DNA of 48,639 nt from a virus. Taxonomy: Duplodnaviria > Heunggongvirae > Uroviricota > Caudoviricetes. Location: positions 1 to 48,639 of the IMG/VR virus record IMGVR_UViG_2778261184_000002; one strand, written 5' to 3'. Under the pieces are notes generated by a model, which did no database searches, was not told where the DNA came from, and saw only the letters and a list, made by a program, of their open reading frames with translations. Numbering within the stretch: the first letter of the stretch is position 1; the number at the start of each line of letters is the position of its first letter. The translations under genes were made by a program, and so were the position numbers. Below, piece by piece: positions 4,281 through 44,641 of the stretch.

Positions 4281-4532
4281 TCAACTAACAATCCAGTCCA
4301 TAGCAACCATATCCTCTGGCGCTAAATCAATAGCATGGATTTTCCCATTCCGGATAGTGCGCCAGTGCTTTCGTGATCCGCCTTCTTGCCATACCCATAC
4401 ACCTTCAGACCATGATGCGCGACGACACACTGTTGCATATCCACTTCTGATCTTCTCTCTGGCTGTATGCAGTGACAGATTATCTTTTGGGATTTCCGGT
4501 AAAGGATGGTGGATTGCCTGAAACATCCCCAT
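4281..4532 (-). CDS. DUF2829-like small protein (Tad2-type fold candidate)
   Basis: 83 aa; V-x-RR-x-(S/A)-W near N-terminus (VCRRASWSEGVWVW) and D-W-I/E-V at C-terminus (MDWIVS), shared with four other ORFs in the window. Confidence 0.5.
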   Translation of the reverse strand: MGMFQAIHHPLPEIPKDNLSLHTAREKIRSGYATVCRRASWSEGVWVWQEGGSRKHWRTIRNGKIHAIDLAPEDMVAMDWIVS

Positions 4533-4714: not shown

Positions 4715-4898
4715 AATGGCAGCCTCCTTTTGCTAATTTAAGGAGCTACCGCGTGAGGTTCCAATCTCAATGGCGGTAGCACTGACTGGGTTGGAACTAC
4801 CGGCGCAAAAGGGAACCGGCCTGCCTTTCGGCAGCCCAGCCAGCACTACCATTGATCTCTGAGCTAAACGCTACGTATGGCTGTGCGATGGCATGACA

Positions 4899-4921
4899 CA
4901 AAAAAAGACGCTTTCGGCGTC
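4899..4921 (-). terminator. Rho-independent terminator (minus strand)
   Basis: GACGC-tttcg-GCGTC hairpin followed on the minus strand by T7. Confidence 0.5.
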
Positions 4922-5028
4922 TGTGTCGCCTTTTGCATTATCCGGGGTTCCAATCCCGGCACCCGTTTTTCTAAGGTGCCGTAGAAATATACCCCACGAT
5001 AATGCCAGGGCGCAACTGTGTGTTTTCT

Positions 5029-15644: not shown

Positions 15645-15854
15645 ATGAAGCATTTTTTAAGGTTGGCATTTGTTCTGGCGCTATTTGATCCTCCGGCTGC
15701 AATGGCTGGAGAACAGCAACATTGCACAAAAGAGAATGAACACCCTTTCATCGTTATTCAATGCGATGACGGAACGGTGACTGTGGTTAATGTAAGAAAT
15801 GACCGTGTAGCTGTTTGCCGTAAAGGCGAACCATGCAAGGAAATAAAACTATGA
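15645..15854 (+). CDS. Small secreted Cys-containing protein
   Basis: 69 aa; signal peptide LAFVLALFDPPAAMA; four Cys. Confidence 0.4.
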   Translation: MKHFLRLAFVLALFDPPAAMAGEQQHCTKENEHPFIVIQCDDGTVTVVNVRNDRVAVCRKGEPCKEIKL

Positions 15855-16609
15855 CAAGAATCACTAAAGAGCGTATTTCAGATATTATTTCCCGTATCGA
15901 AATGTATGGTCACGGTGCTGGATATACGGCAGATGAAGTATTGGCACTTGCCCAAATGGCTTTGGCGGCTTGCAAAGATGATAAAAAAATGAAGCTTATC
16001 GACTTGTTAGTGAAGGAGCTGCCTAAGTGCGGCGGGTGGCCTGATGGTATGATCGATTGTCGCCTGCTCAGTGCCAATTTAATGGCGCCATGCGCGACTT
16101 TTGCTTTTGGCTCAGACCACAAAAAAGACACGTTCTTTGGGTGCAATTTTTGTTATGAGATTGAGCTTCCAATTGGTGACCTTGATAGCGATGAATACCT
16201 GTCAGTTGTCACTCGCGAACAATACGAATCAGCTCTCATAGCGTCGCAGAAAGTCGAGTTCAATGGTGATGAACTTGAAAGTAAGACTTACAGGTTGGAT
16301 TTTGGGCAATGGCTGGAACAGCAACGCGGGAAAATCGATGTGGACTGTGGTTGTGTGTCCACTGAAACATTCATGCACTGGCTGCGGGTAGCTTACGAGG
16401 CTGGCAACCATCCGGATTTTCCGGATAGTTCCCAACAATCGCCCAAGAAAAGCGTAAAAACCACTCTGGAAAGAGGCTATCTTGAGGCCGCATTAAAGAT
16501 TAAGCCGGGCCATACGCTAGGCGTCATTGATGCCATGTTGGTTCATGAAATGGCGAAGGCTTTATTGCCGCTGGTGGCTGATAAAATTCCGAATAAAGCC
16601 GATATCTGA
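15851..16609 (+). CDS. Hypothetical Cys-rich protein
   Basis: Start at ATG 15851 overlapping upstream stop (ATGA). Confidence 0.45.
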   Translation: MTRITKERISDIISRIEMYGHGAGYTADEVLALAQMALAACKDDKKMKLIDLLVKELPKCGGWPDGMIDCRLLSANLMAPCATFAFGSDHKKDTFFGCNFCYEIELPIGDLDSDEYLSVVTREQYESALIASQKVEFNGDELESKTYRLDFGQWLEQQRGKIDVDCGCVSTETFMHWLRVAYEAGNHPDFPDSSQQSPKKSVKTTLERGYLEAALKIKPGHTLGVIDAMLVHEMAKALLPLVADKIPNKADI

Positions 16610-16620
16610 TCACCATGCTA

Positions 16621-16651
16621 AAATCCCCTCAATTCACAGAGGGGATTTTTG
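16621..16651. terminator. Rho-independent terminator
   Basis: ATCCCCTC-aattcaca-GAGGGGAT followed by T5. Confidence 0.7.
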
Positions 16652-16921
16652 TATATGTTGCATAGAGTTTTATGGAAAAGCGTTATTGTCGGCGCGATAC
16701 TGGCTATATCTGGGTGTGCAATGGTGCAATACAACGACGGTGAAAAGGTAAGCATACAGTCAGATGGTTGGTATGGCCTGGATAGCCTGCAAAAAACCGC
16801 AGATAAAGCCTGTCAGCAATATGGGAAGTCTAAAGCAGTATATCAGCATAGCGCGAACGCTAACCCTCATCTAGCGCCCGGTTCTGGTGTTCAGAATACC
16901 ATCTGGAAATGTGAGCCTTAA
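16649..16921 (+). CDS. Lipoprotein candidate
   Basis: Lipobox-like LAISGC after a hydrophobic N-terminus. Confidence 0.5.
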
Positions 16922-16923
16922 AT

Positions 16924-17175
16924 ATGAGCGACTGGAATATTGCAGCTAAAAGTCAGGAAGAACGGGATAAGGTTAACGTTGATCTGGCTGCCAGCGGTGT
17001 GGCGTACAAAGAGCGATTGAACATACCTGTCATAGCTGAACAGGTAGCCCGCGAGCAACCAGAGAATCTGCGCACCTATTTCATGGAACGGCTACGGCAC
17101 TACCGGCAGTTAAGCCTCCAGTTGCCAAAAGGGAGCGATCCGGTGTATCAGAACGAGGATGCACCAAAAAAATAA
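16924..17175 (+). CDS. Hypothetical protein
   Basis: 83-aa ORF. Confidence 0.4.
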
Positions 17176-17260
17176 CGGCAAGATGGGGGAGAAATGTGAT
17201 TAGCCCCCAGCGTGGCGCGCCTACAAACCCCGCTTTCACAAACTATTCCTTTTCAATGTA

Positions 17261-17280
17261 TACTGTATGAATAAACAGTA
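17261..17280 (+). promoter_or_regulatory. LexA (SOS) box TACTGTATGAATAAACAGTA
   Basis: CTGT-N8-ACAG with flanking TA/TA, 19 bp upstream of the humD-like start codon. Confidence 0.75.
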
Positions 17281-17298
17281 TCATTGAGGTAAAACGCT

Positions 17299-17688
17299 AT
17301 GGGCTTCCCTTCTCCTGCGGCGGATTATGCAGAGAGCCGCATTTCTCTTGATCAGCAACTAATCAGACATCCTTCCGCGACCTACTTCATGCGGGCGGCA
17401 GACAGCCATCACCGTGAGGGAATATTGCAAGGTGCTTTGCTGGTGGTTGATTCCTCACTTACTCCGGTTGATGGTTCACTGCTTATATGCGCTATGGAGG
17501 GTGAATATCGCATAAAGAGATACAGGAAGTATCCGCGCCAGCACCTGGAGGATTTAAGCACCGGGAAGAAAGAGGCGTTACCAGTAGATGACGATGGATG
17601 CACGGGCAGTAATGCTGTGTTTGGTGTGATCACTCATGTCATTAATGATGCCCGAAGTGGGGAGTTTGATTATAGACCTGTGATTTAA
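17299..17688 (+). CDS. humD: HumD (UmuD'-like translesion-synthesis accessory protein)
   Basis: 129 aa; GFPSPAADY...HPSATYF...collinear with the UmuD' region; lacks the LexA-like cleavage N-terminus, as P1 HumD. Confidence 0.8.
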   Translation: MGFPSPAADYAESRISLDQQLIRHPSATYFMRAADSHHREGILQGALLVVDSSLTPVDGSLLICAMEGEYRIKRYRKYPRQHLEDLSTGKKEALPVDDDGCTGSNAVFGVITHVINDARSGEFDYRPVI

Positions 17689-17698
17689 GGCGCATAAA

Positions 17699-17728
17699 GA
17701 AGCCCGCCAGACCTGGCGGGCTTTTTGT
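17699..17728 (+). terminator. Rho-independent terminator after humD
   Basis: AGCCCGCCAG-ac-CTGGCGGGCT followed by TTTTT. Confidence 0.7.
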
Positions 17729-17733
17729 TGATA

Positions 17734-18828
17734 TCATTCAATGATTTTTTCGGCTGTCAGCCAGCTAATTTCGTGCCTGTCTTTCGGCGGTTTTAGCATG
17801 TGAGCATATTCAGCGACATGCTCCCACGGAATTGTTTTTGCCCACTCAACGATAGCATTGTGATCTGCAGTGAAGAGTGGAATAGTGTGCGATTTCAACC
17901 ATTCTAATGTCGTGACGCCATGTTTTTTGGCGTGGTGCTGCGCATGATGCCGGGCTATCACTCGTAATGGCATTGTCCATTCACTACCATCAGGCATCGA
18001 AAAGCGCATTGTCTTCGGCATATCTGATTCAAGAACAGCCTCCCTAATACCAGGGAACTCACCAAGAATCATACGACGATAGTCATCACTATTTCGCCCG
18101 CCATACCTTTCGGCAAAATGATCAAGATATTCTTGGGTAATAAATGGTGAATCCTCCGCACTCAGCTTAATGGCTTTATATACACCACTCGGATTATCTT
18201 CAGCTAAAGCACGTCCATGATGTGAATCATAAAAAAAGCCTATTTCCTCTGGTGACGGAATTGAAGTGAGCAATATGCGTGAATCACCACTAGTCATGCT
18301 TGCCCACACAATGCTGTATGCCCGATCGCTGATATGTGCGGAATCCACAATAATGAATAAAAGATGGTCGGCGTAGTGACCTGCAATGCTATCTTCATAG
18401 TTAAGGCGGTAGTTACAAAAGCACATTCCCCAAAATTCATTGAACATCAGACCGCTATCACCGACCTTAAAATACTCAATGATAAAAGGTTGTTTTTTCA
18501 GCAATGCCTCCCAACATTGCCACACACATGCAACAATTCCTCTTTTGCAAACATTTGATTTTGGATAAACAATTACTGTCCGGGAATCAGGATACATAAT
18601 CGTATAAAGGGTACTAATAACAGCAAGCACTTGCGGTCGTCCGATCCCATACGGAGTGGTGACAGTAGCTTTTGCATTATTGGGCTGTATAGCTTCAACA
18701 ATTTGTTGTTGCTGGTGGCTTAAATCAATATCAAACAATTCTTTTGCTGCCAGTACCCAATTGTCTTTATATTTCTCCACCAGCGACAGCCAGCGCGGAT
18801 CTTTATAAATATTGCTCTTAGTCGCCAT
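17734..18828 (-). CDS. Terminase-large-subunit ATPase paralog with degenerate Walker A/B motifs (P1 PdcB-like by position)
   Basis: Collinear with N-terminal half of the PacB-like protein (DPRW...HQQQ-I), but Walker A is GIGRP instead of GTGKS and Walker B IVDSA instead of ILDEA; start at ATG 18828 (RBS AGGAAG). Confidence 0.55.
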   Translation of the reverse strand: MATKSNIYKDPRWLSLVEKYKDNWVLAAKELFDIDLSHQQQQIVEAIQPNNAKATVTTPYGIGRPQVLAVISTLYTIMYPDSRTVIVYPKSNVCKRGIVACVWQCWEALLKKQPFIIEYFKVGDSGLMFNEFWGMCFCNYRLNYEDSIAGHYADHLLFIIVDSAHISDRAYSIVWASMTSGDSRILLTSIPSPEEIGFFYDSHHGRALAEDNPSGVYKAIKLSAEDSPFITQEYLDHFAERYGGRNSDDYRRMILGEFPGIREAVLESDMPKTMRFSMPDGSEWTMPLRVIARHHAQHHAKKHGVTTLEWLKSHTIPLFTADHNAIVEWAKTIPWEHVAEYAHMLKPPKDRHEISWLTAEKIIE

Positions 18829-19585
18829 CTGCCACTTCCTTAACTTCTTCTTTGGCCTGTTCTGCAATCGCCGCACGGCATTTCGCCCTGGCTGTAGCGA
18901 TTGCTTCAGCTCGCACATCGTCTGGAATCGTTGACGTGATATACATATCCAGTTCTTCGGCACGGAATACTGTTTGGTCCAGATATTCGCGTAGCATCCA
19001 GGTAAATTCGAAATCACACGCGATAATCTCTGCGCTACCTTCTGCACCATTTGGGAAATGAATAAATGCCTGTTTAGCCAAACCGATAACACGACATGCG
19101 GTTGCCAAAACAGCGACAACCAGGTTTACATTTTCACACGCTACGGGCTGATTAACGCCGGAGATTACTCCATTTAACTGTCGGTTATATGGAAGGTAGT
19201 TTGAGATGCGTTCTACGCGCCATGTGCCAGTCAGGCTGCCATTTTTAAATATAATTGGTGTAACGGATAGCCCAAGCTCGCGTATAAGTCGTTGCGCTAT
19301 AGCAGGATCATTAAACAGGTCTAATGCTACACATTCGAAAGACTGCGCAAGGGCAAACAGTTCTTCCAGAGAGTAGTCTTTGCCCCTGGCGGTGATGTAA
19401 CGACGAACGCCGCTGTCTGCATCACTCCATATAGCTACGCCATGCTCTTCATTCAGCTCTTCATTAAAGCCGAGATACGTCATGATAGTGCGTTCAATCG
19501 TGTCAAACGGCAGTGACATGTCGGCGTTAACAGCCACCAGCAGGCCATTACGCAAGCGGTATTGAATTGTTTTAGTGCTTTCCAT
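18818..19585 (-). CDS. Hypothetical protein
   Basis: 255-aa ORF; stop overlaps downstream start. Confidence 0.45.
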   Translation of the reverse strand: MESTKTIQYRLRNGLLVAVNADMSLPFDTIERTIMTYLGFNEELNEEHGVAIWSDADSGVRRYITARGKDYSLEELFALAQSFECVALDLFNDPAIAQRLIRELGLSVTPIIFKNGSLTGTWRVERISNYLPYNRQLNGVISGVNQPVACENVNLVVAVLATACRVIGLAKQAFIHFPNGAEGSAEIIACDFEFTWMLREYLDQTVFRAEELDMYITSTIPDDVRAEAIATARAKCRAAIAEQAKEEVKEVADGD

Positions 19586-19591
19586 GTCAAA

Positions 19592-20254
19592 TCACTCCAC
19601 AACAAACCAGTCACAGGCCAGCAGGTCGCCAACTGAAGGCACCCACGGAACAACTACACCTTGTGCATTTTTTAAGGCGAAATAAGCACCATACGGAACG
19701 AGGTCGCCGGGGAAATATCCCTTAATGGCTTCCATTCGTGCCGGGTACTGTCCTTCAGGAACCAGCCAGCAGAATTGGTCTTCGCCGTTCCACCCGCGTC
19801 GAGCAACTTTCTTGCCATCCTTCATCCACATCAGCGCGTCAGAAAAGTCGGCTGCTTCAAGGTCGATTTCTTCTTGTAGAGTAGCGATACCGCCAGCAGA
19901 AATAGTTACGTCCCTGGCTGTAATGAATGTCACCCCATTGTGACCTTCAATGCTGAGCGATACCCCATTTTCGGAGGCGTCGTTAACCCGGCTATAGCAT
20001 TTTTCAAATGCTTTCTCTGGCACATAGACCAGATAACCATTTTCAGCAGTGACGAGATATCCTCCTATTTGCGGTCGGAACTTTTCCAAGAACACACCAT
20101 CAACACGAAGCGTCATTCCTTTTGGCTCCACGACTTCGATGCTGCCAAAAATGGGCGCATAAGCTTTGCCGACAATAACAATATCTTTGATTTTCGATGC
20201 CCGAATGATGCTGTGGCATTTGTATTTGGGGAACACCTGAAAAGTGCTGGCCAT
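19592..20254 (-). CDS. Two-domain protein: unknown N-terminal domain fused to C-terminal DUF2829-like domain
   Basis: C-terminal KDGKKVARRGWNGEDQFCWL...DLLACDWFVVE. Confidence 0.5.
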   Translation of the reverse strand: MASTFQVFPKYKCHSIIRASKIKDIVIVGKAYAPIFGSIEVVEPKGMTLRVDGVFLEKFRPQIGGYLVTAENGYLVYVPEKAFEKCYSRVNDASENGVSLSIEGHNGVTFITARDVTISAGGIATLQEEIDLEAADFSDALMWMKDGKKVARRGWNGEDQFCWLVPEGQYPARMEAIKGYFPGDLVPYGAYFALKNAQGVVVPWVPSVGDLLACDWFVVE

Positions 20255-20268
20255 AATCCTTCCTCTAC

Positions 20269-20763
20269 TTAAAACTTTGCGTACTGAAGCGGTGTACGCT
20301 TGATTTCAACGCGGCCTTCCGATGTGCTACCAAAGCCACCAGCACCACGCTCCGTTTCGTTGAGTTCCTCAACCTCGACTAGTGAGACTTGTTCAACACG
20401 CTCAAAAATTCCTTGCATGACAGCCATTCCATGCTTGAGACAAACGCCTTCCCCGCCTGGATCAGTAATCAGTTTTGCCATGATTTCGCCGCGATAATCG
20501 GAGTCGATAATTCCTACGCAGTTAGCCAGGCGAGTATGTTTTTTGCAGCCCAATCCTGATCGCGGATAGAGTTTCAGACACCAGCCGGGCGGGATCTCCA
20601 TAGCCAGTCCGGTATACACCCACCAGCTTGAGGAAATTGCACCATTGCTATCGACGCATGGTTTTATTTCAACAGCCTCAAAATCCATCGCCGCCGATCC
20701 GGAGGTGGCATAAGCTGGAAGTTTTGCTGCCGGATGTAGGCGTTTCACTTTTACGTAAATCAT
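20269..20763 (-). CDS. dut: dUTP diphosphatase (trimeric dUTPase)
   Basis: Motifs PRSGLG, GIIDSDYRGE and RGAGGFGSTS in canonical order. Confidence 0.85.
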   Translation of the reverse strand: MIYVKVKRLHPAAKLPAYATSGSAAMDFEAVEIKPCVDSNGAISSSWWVYTGLAMEIPPGWCLKLYPRSGLGCKKHTRLANCVGIIDSDYRGEIMAKLITDPGGEGVCLKHGMAVMQGIFERVEQVSLVEVEELNETERGAGGFGSTSEGRVEIKRTPLQYAKF

Positions 20764-21236
20764 TGTTTTTTAGCTCTCTGCGTGAAGGTGTAAACCCGAC
20801 GTTTGATATGTGGAACGGTAGGAACAGGAAGACAGGAACTTTCAATAACTCCTTGCTCCTCCAGCGATCGCACCGCCCGCAAGAACTGCGACGTGTCGCC
20901 GCCAAACTGGCGGGCATAGGTGCTGCCGTTATGAAGTATTTGAGCTATTACCCGAGCTTTTGTCTGGCTGTCACGATATGCGAATAGCCGCACGGCCTCT
21001 TCTGGCGCAATCGCTAACTGATAGCCTTTCCCGGCACGGTGTCGAATGAATCCATGCGCCAGTAGGTTTTTGAGTTCGTTACGAGTGCGAACAGATCCGT
21101 AATCCAGGAAGTGTGGATTGATAACGACTGGCTTAAACCATTCCGTAGGTGCTTTAGCTAATAGAGCTAACAGCTTCCCGGACAATTCTGGATAGGAAGA
21201 CGGGTAACAATTCAGAGATGGGTAATAAGTTTTCAC
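20760..21236 (-). CDS. Hypothetical protein
   Basis: 158-aa ORF, overlapping neighbours. Confidence 0.45.
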   Translation of the reverse strand: MKTYYPSLNCYPSSYPELSGKLLALLAKAPTEWFKPVVINPHFLDYGSVRTRNELKNLLAHGFIRHRAGKGYQLAIAPEEAVRLFAYRDSQTKARVIAQILHNGSTYARQFGGDTSQFLRAVRSLEEQGVIESSCLPVPTVPHIKRRVYTFTQRAKKQ

Positions 21237-21577
21237 CGACGCCCCCTTGCCGGATATCGACCTGCATTAGTATCCGGTGCAATAAAGCCGGTAGTGGGGC
21301 GAGTGAAAGCGAGATTAATCTTCTCGACCATAGTGCGATAATTTTCCTGATAGTGGGCCAGGAGTTTTTCGGCGGCAATGATGGTTACTTTCCGGACGTA
21401 GCTTTCTGCTTCCTCCAGATTTCGCCAGTTTTTTTCGAGGGTAAACACAGGGACGGCCTCAAGCCCGGTCATGATGCCGAACACAACGACAGCATGACTA
21501 TTCTTAACACCAGCGGCGAAGGTTACGGTGTAACCATCTACCTTGAAGCGTCTTGATTCCGTGATTTGACTCTGCAA
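21233..21577 (-). CDS. Hypothetical protein
   Basis: 114-aa ORF; first gene of an operon starting below an operator-like motif. Confidence 0.45.
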   Translation of the reverse strand: MQSQITESRRFKVDGYTVTFAAGVKNSHAVVVFGIMTGLEAVPVFTLEKNWRNLEEAESYVRKVTIIAAEKLLAHYQENYRTMVEKINLAFTRPTTGFIAPDTNAGRYPARGRR

Positions 21578-21635
21578 AGCACCCTCCTAAATAGGCGAGG
21601 GTACTTTACAGCAAAGGCGTTAATCTAAAAAGATG

Positions 21636-21652
21636 TGTTAGAAATTTAATTT
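21636..21652 (+). promoter_or_regulatory. Operator-like motif copy (TGTTAGAAATTTAATTT)
   Basis: Between the recombinase gene stop and the start of the 21577 operon. Confidence 0.45.
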
Positions 21653-22679
21653 ACGAATCCATCAGGCGGCTATTAGCCCCCACAGACACGCCGCCACGGC
21701 GAAGATACCGCATAAGTGTTTCCGGTTTCTTCCAGGTTCCTTCCTGCATGATCTCCACCATAGACACCTGCTTTTCAGCCATATCAATAGCGGCCCCGAC
21801 GCGTGCACTATGCCCGGTCCACGTCCGGTATCTTCCTTTGTTTGGCGTAGCATCTCTTTTATTCAGCAACACCCAGGCGTCGCTGAATATTTTCTCCATT
21901 GCAGGTGCAGTAAGGGGCGTTGTCGTGATCCTGGCCTTATTGCTACGGTGTATCGGCGGGAACAGCACTGCGTCAGGATGTTCGCGAAGCCCGGAAACAT
22001 CCAGCCAGTCATTCAGCACAGCGGTAGTGCAACGGGAAAGCACCTTATCAAGCCCGGCGGCGGTCGTTATTGTCTTCGTGTGTGAAATATGTAGCGTGAC
22101 AGTGTCACCTGTTTGGTCCAGATCTCCTACACGAATACGCGAGATTTCCGACATACGCATCAGCGTATTGTATGCAACAAAGAGAAAAGCCCGGTTGCGC
22201 AGATCCACCAGCCGTTCTGACCTGGACAACAGGACGTCGAGCAGTTTCAGATCGTCCCACCGCAGCGGTATAGCCTGGCCTGTTCGTTCGCCTTTTTCAG
22301 TTGCCGCTTCGCGCCGGATGCGCCGCATAGCCAGAGAAACACTTTTATCATCCGAAAGTGGCGGAAGGCCACAATGCGAAAGCAGCATGTTCAGCATGGC
22401 GTAGTGCTTATCAATGGTGGTCGAAGCCAGATCGGCATCATGCAGCTGAAGAAAATACTCGCGGGCCATCTCTGGTGAGATCGGGAACCAGGCGAGCTGG
22501 CGAGCGTGACACCATCTCGCCCAGGAGTGAAACACTAACCGGAGATCGCGCAAAGTATTCGGCGCGTAAGCCCCCTGGTCATTCATGAACCGCATAAAGT
22601 TTTCTGCGGCCTCCTGGTACTCTTTGCCAATGTTGCGCAGAAAACCACTGGAGCTGCCAGAGATAATTAATTCACTCAT
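21651..22679 (-). CDS. dre: Cre-family tyrosine site-specific recombinase (Dre-like)
   Basis: 342 aa; collinear with P1 Cre over the whole length (SWA-WC...WFP, SLAMRRIRRE, AYNTLMRMSEI-RIRV-D, GHSARVGAA-DMA, C-terminal catalytic Tyr region); adjacent rox-type site. Confidence 0.85.
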   Translation of the reverse strand: MSELIISGSSSGFLRNIGKEYQEAAENFMRFMNDQGAYAPNTLRDLRLVFHSWARWCHARQLAWFPISPEMAREYFLQLHDADLASTTIDKHYAMLNMLLSHCGLPPLSDDKSVSLAMRRIRREAATEKGERTGQAIPLRWDDLKLLDVLLSRSERLVDLRNRAFLFVAYNTLMRMSEISRIRVGDLDQTGDTVTLHISHTKTITTAAGLDKVLSRCTTAVLNDWLDVSGLREHPDAVLFPPIHRSNKARITTTPLTAPAMEKIFSDAWVLLNKRDATPNKGRYRTWTGHSARVGAAIDMAEKQVSMVEIMQEGTWKKPETLMRYLRRGGVSVGANSRLMDS

Positions 22680-22831
22680 GAAACTATTTAACCTCTATAT
22701 ACAGATGACGCTACGCGAAAAATATAAAAATGACAGGGTAGCTATAAGTTAATTTTCAAGATTCAAACCTTTGATTCGAGGCACGTATTTTCAGTGATGT
22801 CAACACTGATCATCCACCCATGATTATAGCC

Positions 22832-22863
22832 TAACTTTAAATAATGCCAATTATCTAAAGTTA
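22832..22863. other. lox/rox-type recombination site TAACTTTAAATAAT-GCCA-ATTATCTAAAGTTA
   Basis: 14-bp inverted arms around 4-bp spacer, 150 bp upstream of the recombinase gene; arms differ at one position. Confidence 0.75.
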
Positions 22864-22870
22864 GAAACTT
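22859..22870 (+). promoter_or_regulatory. Operator-like motif copy (AGTTAGAAACTT) overlapping the right arm of the rox-type site
   Basis: Partial match to consensus. Confidence 0.3.
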
Positions 22871-23036
22871 AGGAATTTTTTTCCTTTCCGCGTAGATGGG
22901 CAATGCATTGCTGGCGTGGGCTTTAAGTTATGCCTGGCAGTTTTTAAGCAGAATTTTCTAAATTGGATGATAAAAAAATGCATCTTGATCCTTTACTCAC
23001 CCTGTTATTCGGCATAGATTTGTCATAGTAATTTTA

Positions 23037-23053
23037 TGTTAGAAAACTAAATC
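23037..23053 (+). promoter_or_regulatory. Operator-like motif copy (TGTTAGAAAACTAAATC)
   Basis: 10 bp upstream of the RBS of ORF 23065. Confidence 0.45.
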
Positions 23054-23064
23054 GAGTAGGAATA

Positions 23065-24102
23065 ATGAGTAAGAAGTCGATCGAGAAAGAGTACAAACGG
23101 TTCCTGCAAACCGCTGAACGGTGGAAAGAGCTGGTGGTCGCAAACTCTGTTTTCCATGATACCAGTTATGCCGGCGAGGAATTCCGCCACGTTGCACTAA
23201 CACATGATCAGAATGTGCTAGAAGAAGCTGAAAAGTGCCTCACAGAATGGAAAGCCTTTGTTGACTTGTGCCGTAACGCTGACGGCAAAGCGTCCAACAT
23301 TGTTGAGTCTGTATATTCTCCGATCCCATTCATTATTGAGGACACAAATCAAAGCACGCATATTGTTGTGCAAAGCGCGACCACCACCCGCTCATTTACG
23401 CGCGAAAATCTGCTCAAAAAATATGATGCAATTATAAAGAAAAGCCTGAAAAACAAGATATTTTCGCAGATTGTTGGTGCACTTGAAGAAGAGCGCCGTT
23501 TTTTCGCATCAGAACCTGAAGGGGAAGTTTACCGGGCGCGCAAAGATGGATACACAGATGTAGTGCTTACAACAAACATTGAAGGCAGCAATGCTCTGTC
23601 ACGATTCAGGGTAGGCGCACACGGAGCCTTAGTGTTCGCAAAACTTCCGAACACCACAGTGCCCGTTGTTAATAATGTCGGCGAACGTCGCAGCATTACT
23701 ATTTATTCTGGGGTTGAGTCGATCCCTTGCGGCCTGCTTGGTGACTTTAGTCTCTATCGCGTTCGCGATCTGGAGAAACACCAACCAAGCTATGTTGCGA
23801 AGTCATACATCTTGCGAAACATCGACATCCGCAATGAGAGCTTAAAGAACAAATCAGCCAAAATGCTTGAGGAAGCCGATCCGGCTATTCGCCATATCAT
23901 TGAGCGTAAAATACAGACAGCACGCGAAGCGATGGCGAGACTGAATAAAATGGATCTGGAGTTGTTAGACGTAATGATGACATCCGGAGATGACCTGACA
24001 GGCATAAAACTGACAGACGCGCGGAAAAGATACGGTAAAACCATAGAAGAACGTTACGGGTTCACTTTCTCCCAAACACAGCACGCCGCTAAACTCTGGT
24101 AA
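23065..24102 (+). CDS. Hypothetical protein; positional candidate for the primary immunity repressor (C1 analog)
   Basis: 345 aa; lies between pacB-like gene and the recombination site as c1 does in P1; three operator-like motifs within 210 bp upstream. No sequence motif supports the function. Confidence 0.35.
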   Translation: MSKKSIEKEYKRFLQTAERWKELVVANSVFHDTSYAGEEFRHVALTHDQNVLEEAEKCLTEWKAFVDLCRNADGKASNIVESVYSPIPFIIEDTNQSTHIVVQSATTTRSFTRENLLKKYDAIIKKSLKNKIFSQIVGALEEERRFFASEPEGEVYRARKDGYTDVVLTTNIEGSNALSRFRVGAHGALVFAKLPNTTVPVVNNVGERRSITIYSGVESIPCGLLGDFSLYRVRDLEKHQPSYVAKSYILRNIDIRNESLKNKSAKMLEEADPAIRHIIERKIQTAREAMARLNKMDLELLDVMMTSGDDLTGIKLTDARKRYGKTIEERYGFTFSQTQHAAKLW

Positions 24103-24106
24103 TCAC

Positions 24107-24131
24107 AAGCCCCGCATTGCCGGGGCTTTAT
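24107..24131 (+). terminator. Rho-independent terminator
   Basis: AAGCCCCG-cattg-CGGGGCTT followed by TAT. Confidence 0.6.
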
Positions 24132-24173
24132 CCGGTGCGCCGTAAAACCCCGTCCTTCAGGGCGTGGAGGATG

Positions 24174-25682
24174 TCAAATATCCAGATCTGGCATTTCTAC
24201 ATCTGCAAGAACCTGATCGCGGAAGGTAGCCATTTCAGCGCCGATATCTTCATTAGCAGGAACATAGTCCACCAGCATTGTAAAGCAGTAGGTATCCCAT
24301 CGGTCAGGTGATTTGATGTTCAGCTTTTGCCGCATGTGCTCCTTGCGCATCATCGCCATCTTCCCTTCTTCATTAAGTAAAAAGGGGATTTTTGACGCTT
24401 GCTCTGCCGTTTTAGGGTCGCTGTCTATTCGCATACGACCTGACTTTATGGCATCACGAGCCATAATATTTGCGTAGGCACGCTGGTTAACAAAACGCTC
24501 CTTGTCTTTATTCGAAAACATGGGTTTCCCCCACCGAATCCGTACCGGGTTAGCCCCACGGCGCACCAGCTGCGCACAGGTATCTGAACCAAAACCGTCT
24601 GCGTCAACCGCGATTGTAATATTCGGGTATTTATCCGGCGTGCATTCGTTGTATATAAAGTCAGCAAAAGCCAGCGGGTCCATAGTCCCTGGCATTTCCA
24701 TTACCTTAAAGTTAACAACACGCCGCTTTTCCCGGTGACCAGACACTTTACAGATATTAAGAACTGACTTGTCTCGCCCGTTACCAACGTCAGCAGTAGC
24801 CACCCATCCCCAGTTTTTCTCCAACAACACCTTGCGCCGCGCAGCGCGATCGCATTCATCACGACCAAGCAAATAGCCGTTAATCTCCCGAGGAAACTGA
24901 CCAAGAACCTTGACCATGTACTCAATAGAATCGCGCCCGCCATATTCCAGGAGTTTCTGCCTGATGAATTGTGGTGTGACGAACGGTGATTCTTCTGAGT
25001 TAAGAACAATTGCTGTCCAGATCCCTTTCGGGTTGTCTGGGGTTTTAGCTTGAGAATGGTGCGAATCGTAGAAATAACCACTTGGCCTTGTTGGCTGGGA
25101 TAGCATCAACATTCGGTTATCTTCTTCAGTCAGAGCGCCAGTCATTACGCCGATCGCTTTATCAGATATACCTGATGCTTCATCCAGAATTAGAAGCAAA
25201 TGTGCCGCGTGCTCCCCCGCCAGAGCTTCTTCGTTACCGAGTCGATAGCCTTTGCAGAGAACTTCCCAGATCCCCTTTCGAGAGCGTTCATAAAACATGG
25301 TGTCAGACAGGACAAAATAGGTCTGTAACCACCCATGACGCTTAACGGCATTCGCCCAATACTGTTTAACGTATTTGAATACACCTGTCTTAACCTGACC
25401 TATTTTGTTAGCAACAATGATGACACGGGCATCGGGGAACAGAATCAAATAAATCAGCAACAACATAGCCGTTAGCGACGATTTCCCTGTACCGTGACCA
25501 GAGGTAACAGTGGTTCTGCTCCCTTTTTGCTGTACGGACTGGATAATCTCCTGCTGCTGGTGGGAGGGAAACATCCCGAATATATCAACAACAGCCTGGG
25601 TAAAGTTGTAGCGGTATTTGATTACCATATCGCGCCAGCGTGGATCGCTGGTGACGCATTTAATCTTGCGCCCACCAGCCAT
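24174..25682 (-). CDS. pacB: Terminase large subunit (PacB-like)
   Basis: 502 aa; Walker A GHGTGKSS, Walker B LLILDEASGI; follows pacA-like gene with overlapping stop/start. Confidence 0.8.
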   Translation of the reverse strand: MAGGRKIKCVTSDPRWRDMVIKYRYNFTQAVVDIFGMFPSHQQQEIIQSVQQKGSRTTVTSGHGTGKSSLTAMLLLIYLILFPDARVIIVANKIGQVKTGVFKYVKQYWANAVKRHGWLQTYFVLSDTMFYERSRKGIWEVLCKGYRLGNEEALAGEHAAHLLLILDEASGISDKAIGVMTGALTEEDNRMLMLSQPTRPSGYFYDSHHSQAKTPDNPKGIWTAIVLNSEESPFVTPQFIRQKLLEYGGRDSIEYMVKVLGQFPREINGYLLGRDECDRAARRKVLLEKNWGWVATADVGNGRDKSVLNICKVSGHREKRRVVNFKVMEMPGTMDPLAFADFIYNECTPDKYPNITIAVDADGFGSDTCAQLVRRGANPVRIRWGKPMFSNKDKERFVNQRAYANIMARDAIKSGRMRIDSDPKTAEQASKIPFLLNEEGKMAMMRKEHMRQKLNIKSPDRWDTYCFTMLVDYVPANEDIGAEMATFRDQVLADVEMPDLDI

Positions 25683-28964: not shown

Positions 28965-29040
28965 TGGTGGCCCCTACCGGATTTGAACCGATGACCGTGC
29001 GATTATGAGTCGCCTGCTCTAACCACTGAGCTAAGGGGCC
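28965..29040 (-). tRNA. tRNA-Ile (anticodon CAU, lysidine-type ileX-like)
   Basis: GGCCCCTTAGCTCAGTGGTTAGAGCAGGCGACTCATAATCGC...GGTTCAAATCC...GGGGCCACCA; clean cloverleaf, encoded CCA. Confidence 0.9.
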
Positions 29041-30034: not shown

Positions 30035-30110
30035 TGGTGCCGATTAACGGACTCGAACCGCTGACATCCTGCTTACAAGGCAGGCGCTCTACCAACTGAG
30101 CTAAACCGGC
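30035..30110 (-). tRNA. tRNA-Thr (anticodon UGU)
   Basis: GCCGGTTTAGCTCAGTTGGTAGAGCGCCTGCCTTGTAAGCAGG...GGTTCGAGTCC...ATCGGCACCA. Confidence 0.9.
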
Positions 30111-30112
30111 AT

Positions 30113-30189
30113 TGGCGATGGTGGGTGGATTCGAACCACCGACCGACAGCTTAGAAGGCTGCTGCTCTATCCTACTGAGCTACACCATC
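30113..30189 (-). tRNA. tRNA-Arg (anticodon UCU; reads rare AGA/AGG)
   Basis: GATGGTGTAGCTCAGTAGGATAGAGCAGCAGCCTTCTAAGCTGT...GGTGGTTCGAATCCACC-CACCATC-G-CCA. Confidence 0.9.
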
Positions 30190-43267: not shown

Positions 43268-43400
43268 TTACGGCCTCACTAACAGGTTTAACAACCTGCT
43301 ACCCGCTGTCAAACAGGTGGCAGGACGTGACAGGGTTGACAGACTGGCGTTAGTGAAACCAGCAGGCCGAAGCCTCCCCATCACGCCCCACCATAATTCG
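43268..43400 (-). ncRNA. Candidate c4-like antisense/structured RNA region upstream of icd
   Basis: Nested inverted repeats (CCTCACTAAC/GTTAGTGAAA; CTGTCAA/TTGACAG; CAGGTGG) between operator-like site and icd start. Confidence 0.3.
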
Positions 43401-43594
43401 GGCGTAACGCGGTTTACGGACACAAAAATACCGCAATATCGGAAATCTGCGGTTGTCCGCACTAACATTCAGGCTGTCAAACCTGGTCGCAGAATTTGCT
43501 ACGACGGCATGAATATAAGCCTGAAAACATGGAAGATCAACTAAAAATTTCAGCAATGGATGACTTCAGTCGATGATGCAGATCATACATTCCG

Positions 43595-43678: not shown

Positions 43679-44641
43679 TCATCCCCTAAAGCCAGCCGGG
43701 ATTGACCAATCCTCACGGTCAAATTCAGACCGATAGCCACGCTGTTTCATCAGGTCAAAGGCTTCACCAATGGTTGCACACCCCTGGGAGCCAGAATAAT
43801 CCATTGAGAAATCCAGGGCACTGGATTGTTTAGGCTTATTCACTGCGGTAGCGGCACTACGTATCCATGCAAATTTTTTTGCCAGCTTTTCAGCGGTACG
43901 ATACAGAGCCTGCCGTTTTGTGTGCCCCTCGTCTGAACGACGCTTTGCAGCTCTCGCTTTTGCCGCCGCCAGGCAGTGGTTGGTCTGTTCTTCCCTGATT
44001 ACTGTTTTTTTATCCAGTACCCCGTTATCCGTTTGAGAACTATCTGCTGGTGAAGCCTTTGGCTGAACCGCGCATGATCTTTCTCTTCTTTTGGCTATAG
44101 AGTGACTCTTATTTTCTATTGGCTGTTCATTTTGAACATGGGGGGACTTGTTCAATTTGAACAGGGGGTTCCCAGTTTCAAAAAAATAACGAACCTTTGA
44201 AATCAACTGCTTAACCAGTTTTGTGGCGTTGGCAAATTTGATGCCCTGCTTACCCCCTATCTCCATTGCTACATGAATGAAGTGGAGAAATAGTGTCGTA
44301 AACCGATATACGTTACACACCTGGGCATTGTTATTCGCTACCTGATGTTGCTTAACAAGCATTCCGCACTTCGTCGCTTCAGCAAATGCCCGGCGTACAG
44401 TAGAAATACTGCGTCCTGTAATCTCGGACATATCAGCATATGAGCGACGGATCATGTATTCATCGGTAGACCCTGCCAGGTTGGCGAACTCGGCAATAAT
44501 GGCGCTATGTGAAGGGGAAAGAAGACCGCTATGACGAGCAAAAAAACTCAACTGATGACCTTTGATTTTTTTGTGGTATTCAGTGTTGTTTTTATACTCA
44601 GAAGTGTTGAAAGTTACTGAAACTGAATTTAAAATATTCAT
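43679..44641 (-). CDS. Hypothetical HTH-containing protein
   Basis: 320 aa; HTH-like MSEITGRSISTVRRAFAEATKCGML. Confidence 0.45.
   Translation of the reverse strand: MNILNSVSVTFNTSEYKNNTEYHKKIKGHQLSFFARHSGLLSPSHSAIIAEFANLAGSTDEYMIRRSYADMSEITGRSISTVRRAFAEATKCGMLVKQHQVANNNAQVCNVYRFTTLFLHFIHVAMEIGGKQGIKFANATKLVKQLISKVRYFFETGNPLFKLNKSPHVQNEQPIENKSHSIAKRRERSCAVQPKASPADSSQTDNGVLDKKTVIREEQTNHCLAAAKARAAKRRSDEGHTKRQALYRTAEKLAKKFAWIRSAATAVNKPKQSSALDFSMDYSGSQGCATIGEAFDLMKQRGYRSEFDREDWSIPAGFRG

Follow-up and report, generated by a model that had tools for sequence, protein, structure and literature searches.

The humD locus of the D6-like phage-plasmid analyzed here is very probably repressed by host LexA and derepressed during the SOS response, with a product that joins host UmuC; for this locus, we infer LexA occupancy, induction and a physiological benefit. 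The locus is located in a stretch of 48,639 nucleotides of viral DNA (Caudoviricetes; IMG/VR record IMGVR_UViG_2778261184_000002, positions 1 to 48,639), in the following called the window. It represents a further copy of the P1-type combination of humD and LexA operator, which is already described and annotated. An earlier note, made from the letters of the window alone, had proposed a pre-activated UmuD′ analogue behind an SOS operator. As far as sequence comparison can tell, this proposal is supported by the match to the HumD family, the annotation of P1 and P7, the literature, and the conservation of the LexA box.

Over most of its length, the window is ~92-93% identical to coliphage D6, and its region 15800-20500 is 99.8% identical to the E. 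coli plasmid pEHP91H1-2 (NZ_CP149812.1), a circular element of 89.7 kb of the same type. Therefore, the window was assigned to a D6-like, P1-related phage-plasmid of E. coli. The following features were found at and around humD:

16924-17175, plus strand: hot, DNA polymerase III theta homologue (83 aa; Pfam PF06440, 116 bits), annotated as hot in P1 and RCS47
17235-17264, plus strand: sigma-70-like promoter TTCACA-N18-TATACT, from a pattern scan (10/12 matches), conserved in D6 and RCS47
17261-17280, plus strand: LexA operator, the 20-mer TACTGTATGAATAAACAGTA
17286-17289, plus strand: Shine-Dalgarno sequence GAGG, 9 nt before the ATG, read from the sequence and conserved in the alignment of the upstream region
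17299-17688, plus strand: humD coding sequence, 129 aa plus stop codon, UmuD′-type protein without N-terminal arm
17697-17729, plus strand: intrinsic terminator hairpin directly 3′ of humD, with a GC-rich stem, the loop GACC and a subsequent U-run
17734-18828, minus strand: hypothetical gene (364 aa) with no Pfam or NCBIfam match, converging on the humD terminator

Between the operator TACTGTATGAATAAACAGTA and the ATG at 17299 there are 18 nt, and the A of the ATG lies 19 nt past the last base of the box, in agreement with the earlier note, which had placed a LexA box 19 bp before the gene. Compared to the 20-bp E. coli LexA consensus TACTGTATATATATACAGTA, the operator shows three mismatches, all of them within the spacer. 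Nowhere else in the 48.6 kb does a site come within three mismatches of the consensus, and such sites were absent from all 100 dinucleotide-preserving shuffles. With the form TACTGT-(AT-rich)8-ACAGTA, the palindrome is thus near the consensus and beyond chance. For scoring, 26 SOS boxes of E. coli were combined into a symmetric position matrix; the matrix scores and the heterology index (HI) values are approximate. In this LexA-binding prediction, which had been suggested as a check in the same note, the operator reached 25.2 bits, the top score in the window, compared to a maximum of 21.4 bits over 200 shuffles. Its approximate HI of ~3.1 lies between those of umuDC and recA, and because this value is low, tight repression is predicted. 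A similar strength is predicted for the E. coli umuDC operator (approximate HI of 2.6 vs 3.1 for the humD box).

The box is conserved in both close and distant relatives, which supports a function. In all 80 IMG/VR loci encoding close relatives, CTG-N10-CAG is present 18-19 nt before the ATG. Among these loci 11 box variants occur, in which the CTG and CAG cores are invariant and nearly all substitutions are found in the spacer or at the outermost bases. A box of 20-25 bits was also present upstream of each of eight diverged homologues with 44-67% protein identity (N15, phiKO2, HK140, HK639, Huey, pAEv1818, yong1, and vB_Ecl_MII_003 (MII_003)). Here, the distance from box to start is usually 14-44 nt; in HK140 it is 262 nt, and the box is located before a small intervening ORF. 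In a box-anchored comparison of 10 sequences (44-95% protein identity), conservation was 0.91 for the arm columns, compared to 0.46 in the flank 5′ of the box and 0.53 in the one 3′ of it. The diverged homologues that were read begin at the UmuD′ N-terminus with MGFPSPA, with MGMPKFASPA as variant start in pAEv1818. Thus N15 (gp26), phiKO2 (gp23), HK639, HK140 and others have the same module, i.e., a LexA box followed by a pre-truncated UmuD′-like ORF and often by a terminator, although their proteins share only 44-67% identity with HumD of the window and the neighborhoods differ (after tail genes, beside sopB or beside an integrase gene). In phiKO2, a lexA site is annotated before the UmuD-like gp23 and is shared with a divergent dinI-like gene. 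In phage Huey, the annotated ORF of a "UmuD-like protein" (218-697) starts 183 nt upstream of MGFPSPA, contains the LexA box (364-383) and stops before the end of the homology; probably, its start was mis-called or the gene is disrupted.

The statement of the earlier note that the window contains only one full LexA box has to be corrected. The strict motif CTGT-N8-ACAG occurs twice, at 4463 and 17263, and a second near-canonical LexA-like box, TACTGTTTTTTTATCCAGTA, is located at 44000-44019. The match at 4463-4478, CTGTATGCAGTGACAG, combines a spacer rich in GC with poor flanks, and its approximate HI is ~18.7; with ~0.6 matches expected per window, it is most likely due to chance and was rejected. 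The box TACTGTTTTTTTATCCAGTA scored 22.9 bits, above all 200 shuffles, and is one base off the E. coli uvrB box. It is located within a repL-like lytic replication gene (43679-44641, minus strand) at codons ~208-214, i.e., in coding sequence. Of 21 relatives, 20 retain its CTG-N10-CAG core, while the remaining one has lost it by deletion; D6 has TACTGGTTTTTTATCCAGTA at this position. No promoter overlapping the repL-internal box was found on either strand. The lytic origin of P1 lies within repL, and the C1-type repressor of this phage-plasmid is not known to be RecA-cleavable. If LexA binds the repL-internal box, the SOS status of the host could directly gate lytic replication, in parallel to switching on a pre-activated Pol V subunit. 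We consider it unlikely, though, that the element holds such a two-site LexA regulon consisting of the humD operator and the TACTGTTTTTTTATCCAGTA box.

With regard to immunity functions, nothing above 6.8 bits was obtained with the matrix in the c1/dre immunity region of the window (20000-24500). With the same matrix, the immC region of P1 (93000-94800) gave nothing above ~6 bits, and a LexA site is also missing from the annotation of this region in the P1 record. An individual statement in PMC4713147 describes a LexA site overlapping the P1 coi promoter (Pcoi). Elsewhere in the window, Rfam detected a pair of distinct C4 antisense RNA genes with 76.7 and 68.8 bits on the minus strand, the first adjoined by an isrK-type sRNA and the second by a c4 a1/b1 target element:

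4769-4856, 4901-4979, 43313-43398 and 43466-43518, minus strand: RNA features by Rfam (two C4, isrK-type sRNA, c4 a1/b1 element)

Apparently, the element thus has two immunity loci of the C4 RNA type, compared to the one known from P1. Also, three tRNA genes are present on the minus strand (28968-29040, 30038-30110 and 30116-30189) in a region homologous to the tRNA cluster of P1 and P7.

At the protein level, HumD of the window matches the NCBIfam equivalog NF051876 ("HumD family translesion DNA polymerase") with 209.4 bits at a cutoff of 120, residues 1-129 covering profile positions 1-129. It is 95% identical to HumD of P1, and identities are 96% for P7, 95% for RCS47 and 94% for D6; E. coli UmuD shares 45% identity over the UmuD′ part. 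In alignments to solved structures, Gly2 of the window protein corresponds to Gly25 of full-length UmuD (8gmt_B) and to the first residue of UmuD′ (1umu_A). An in-frame TAA is present at 17290-17292, three codons 5′ of the humD ATG, and the ATG at 17299 is the first one after it; therefore, a longer N-terminus of HumD is excluded. Judged by the alignment, the N-terminus is the exact point where RecA-stimulated cleavage leaves UmuD′. While the 24-residue arm of E. coli UmuD is removed by RecA-stimulated self-cleavage, HumD is made without it, and the Gly2 alignment together with the upstream stop codon confirms that the protein is UmuD′-like and lacks the cleavable arm, as had been noted before. 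An Ala/Cys-Gly cleavage site within an N-terminal arm or linker was not found in HumD, which begins at the Gly following that site. At the other end, HumD has a C-terminal extension of 14 residues (GEFDDCPV-like), which is absent from UmuD′ and conserved among HumD-like phage proteins.

The predicted promoter, a pattern match, shares bases with the operator. Its −10 hexamer extends into the left arm of the box, and the predicted transcription start (~17271) is located inside the box, so that bound LexA would occlude both the −10 region and the start site. Upstream, hot is encoded on the same strand with a spacer of 123 bp to humD. Downstream, a simple terminator scan after humD gave no match, and the hairpin with its U-run was found by RNA folding instead: it folds at −24.7 kcal/mol (z = −4.6), and none of 200 shuffles folded as well. 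Since the next gene converges on this terminator, termination in both directions is probable. This hypothetical gene overlaps an isaA-like gene (18818-19585). It is found in place of the phd-doc addiction module, which lies 3′ of humD in P1, P7, RCS47 and D6 and is absent here. Due to the terminator and the convergent gene, humD forms a transcription unit of one gene, and umuC does not follow it. The features listed for the 99.8% identical complete plasmid in the PLSDB gene table, which is incomplete by design, include no Y-family polymerase. As is characteristic of the HumD family, the gene thus stands alone and does not form an operon with a umuC homologue, while E. coli umuD is co-transcribed with umuC. 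Since no umuC partner was found, host UmuC would have to be used.

The closest characterized system is phage P1 (NC_005856), in which humD is located at 87584-87973 and the LexA site at 87545-87564. Both HumD proteins have 129 aa and the same start, MGFPSPAADY, and in both elements humD lacks a umuC partner. The arms of the P1 operator are identical to those of the window; two bases of the spacer differ (TATGAATAAAC here vs TATAAATGAAC in P1), the ATG is 19 nt away in P1 vs 18 nt here, and the −10 region reads TGTACT in P1 vs TATACT here. In P1, the operator is shared with the divergent gene lxr ("LexA regulated function"), whereas lxr is absent from the window and hot is located upstream instead. 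Also, humD is followed by phd-doc in P1 and by the terminator and the convergent hypothetical gene here. The P1 reference record describes 87545-87564 as "LexA binding site in the regulatory region of lxr and humD" and states for humD that it can functionally complement UmuD′; the P7 record has the same LexA binding site annotation for humD. D6 (orf108) and RCS47 do not differ from the window in the LexA box and the sequence just upstream of it. As in the window, hot and humD are neighbors in RCS47 and lxr is missing (95% identity over 590 bp), while D6 has a truncated hot of 147 bp, which is intact here. McLenigan et al. reportedly found in 1999 (J Bacteriol 181:7005) that P1 HumD complements UmuD′ and binds UmuC and RecA filaments, with complementation mainly on overexpression and poor native expression. 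Transferred from the 95% identical P1 protein, the replacement of UmuD′ in mutagenesis, the formation of a dimer and the interaction with UmuC and RecA filaments may be assumed for HumD of the window. Statements in later papers point in the same direction: P1 HumD is referred to as a shortened UmuD that is active from the start (PMC7092418), and its ability to replace UmuD′ in mutagenesis is given in the title of the primary study and in citing statements (PMC7092418), while a passage of PMC9603915 names humD as a LexA-regulated SOS gene.

Taken together, the following sequence of events is proposed. In an unstressed lysogen, a host LexA dimer would occupy the 20-bp operator, covering the −10 hexamer and the predicted start, and humD would be off. 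After DNA damage, activated RecA would induce self-cleavage of LexA, and humD would be transcribed as a single-gene unit ending at the hairpin terminator. As HumD already has the length and the N-terminus of UmuD′, no RecA-mediated processing would be required. The HumD dimer could thereby assemble with SOS-induced host UmuC to a Pol V-like translesion polymerase without the delay of RecA-dependent cleavage, and this enzyme might provide more damage tolerance and mutagenesis for host and prophage. Against a strict form of this model, the missing terminator fold between hot and humD means that part of the humD transcripts could start further upstream, where the promoter occlusion has no effect. 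An entry in PMC10695390 lists P1 humD as "NE" by CRISPRi; lytic growth does not require the gene, and a benefit to the phage is therefore a putative one.

Several other readings of the locus were weighed. Short palindromes are generally frequent, and the looser CTGT-N8-ACAG is expected ~0.6 times per window, so that the palindrome before humD might be a match without any regulatory role. The shuffles, none of which gave a site within three mismatches of the 20-bp consensus, and the retention of the box in 80 of 80 relatives and 8 of 8 diverged homologues while the flanks diverge leave this reading a practically negligible probability; as judged by the comparison, conservation effectively refutes it already. 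It is also highly improbable that the protein is a working self-cleaving S24 peptidase or a LexA-like regulator instead of a UmuD′-type polymerase subunit. Such a function is suggested by the Pfam match to Peptidase_S24 (35 bits), by database names ("S24 family peptidase", as for WP_032342035.1, the humD product annotated in the 99.8% identical plasmid, and "LexA family transcriptional regulator"), and by Ser36 and Lys73, which align with the catalytic Ser60 and Lys97 of UmuD and are also present in P1 HumD. However, HumD has neither a DNA-binding domain nor a cleavable arm; it comprises 129 aa with a UmuD′ N-terminus and an in-frame stop three codons upstream, and it scores only 25.8 bits with the lexA model, far under the cutoff of 111. 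Moreover, the catalytic columns vary among HumD-like phage proteins (Ser to Thr, Gln or Tyr; Lys to Met or Arg), so that proteolysis appears not to be under selection in this group. This drift would fit a protein no longer needing self-cleavage and speaks against a proteolytic role. Cleavage of host UmuD or LexA in trans via Ser36 and Lys73 was also considered and is unlikely, since both positions vary among HumD-like proteins.

Two further readings accept the UmuD′-type protein and shift its expression or its function. The LexA site could be real and most humD expression still stem from read-through, starting at hot or at lytic or late promoters further upstream, with LexA as a weak roadblock at most. 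HumD would then chiefly assist lytic replication beside Hot and not serve the lysogen as an SOS mutagenesis factor. The 123-bp spacer between hot and humD shows no terminator-like structure by RNA folding (z = +0.44), so that read-through is possible; hot has the late promoter LPhot in P1, and both genes, adjacent in the window, RCS47 and D6, encode accessory subunits of host polymerases. We nevertheless regard this reading as quite unlikely: the region upstream of hot in the window, where LPhot was sought, does not align with LPhot of P1, a good predicted promoter overlaps the box itself, and the box is kept in the absence of a neighboring hot gene, for example in N15, HK639 and yong1, where humD follows tail genes. 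The dispensability of P1 humD for lytic growth, as listed in PMC10695390, argues against it as well. Alternatively, HumD might mainly modulate the SOS program of the host, for example by forming heterodimers with uncleaved host UmuD or by acting on the alpha or beta subunit of Pol III, thereby altering the timing of the UmuD checkpoint. UmuD and UmuD′ form heterodimers and interact with Pol III subunits, and the conserved C-terminal extension absent from UmuD′ would leave room for such a role. This is very unlikely, since the characterized P1 protein complements UmuD′ in mutagenesis, as far as the available statements on it go, and nothing in the sequence specifically indicates an inhibitory role. 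The LexA-controlled supply of a UmuD′-type subunit for host UmuC hence is the preferred reading of the locus.

The P1 case was described in 1999 and is annotated in reference genomes, and the window adds a copy in an arrangement without lxr and without phd/doc. A true SOS operator and a truncated UmuD′ could be recognized here from the raw letters alone. The module of LexA box and truncated UmuD′ is conserved across many temperate enterobacterial phages, in which the catalytic Ser/Lys dyad drifts. By such a module, a mobile element would supply its host with an already activated Pol V subunit and thereby remove the RecA-cleavage delay that normally restrains mutagenesis.
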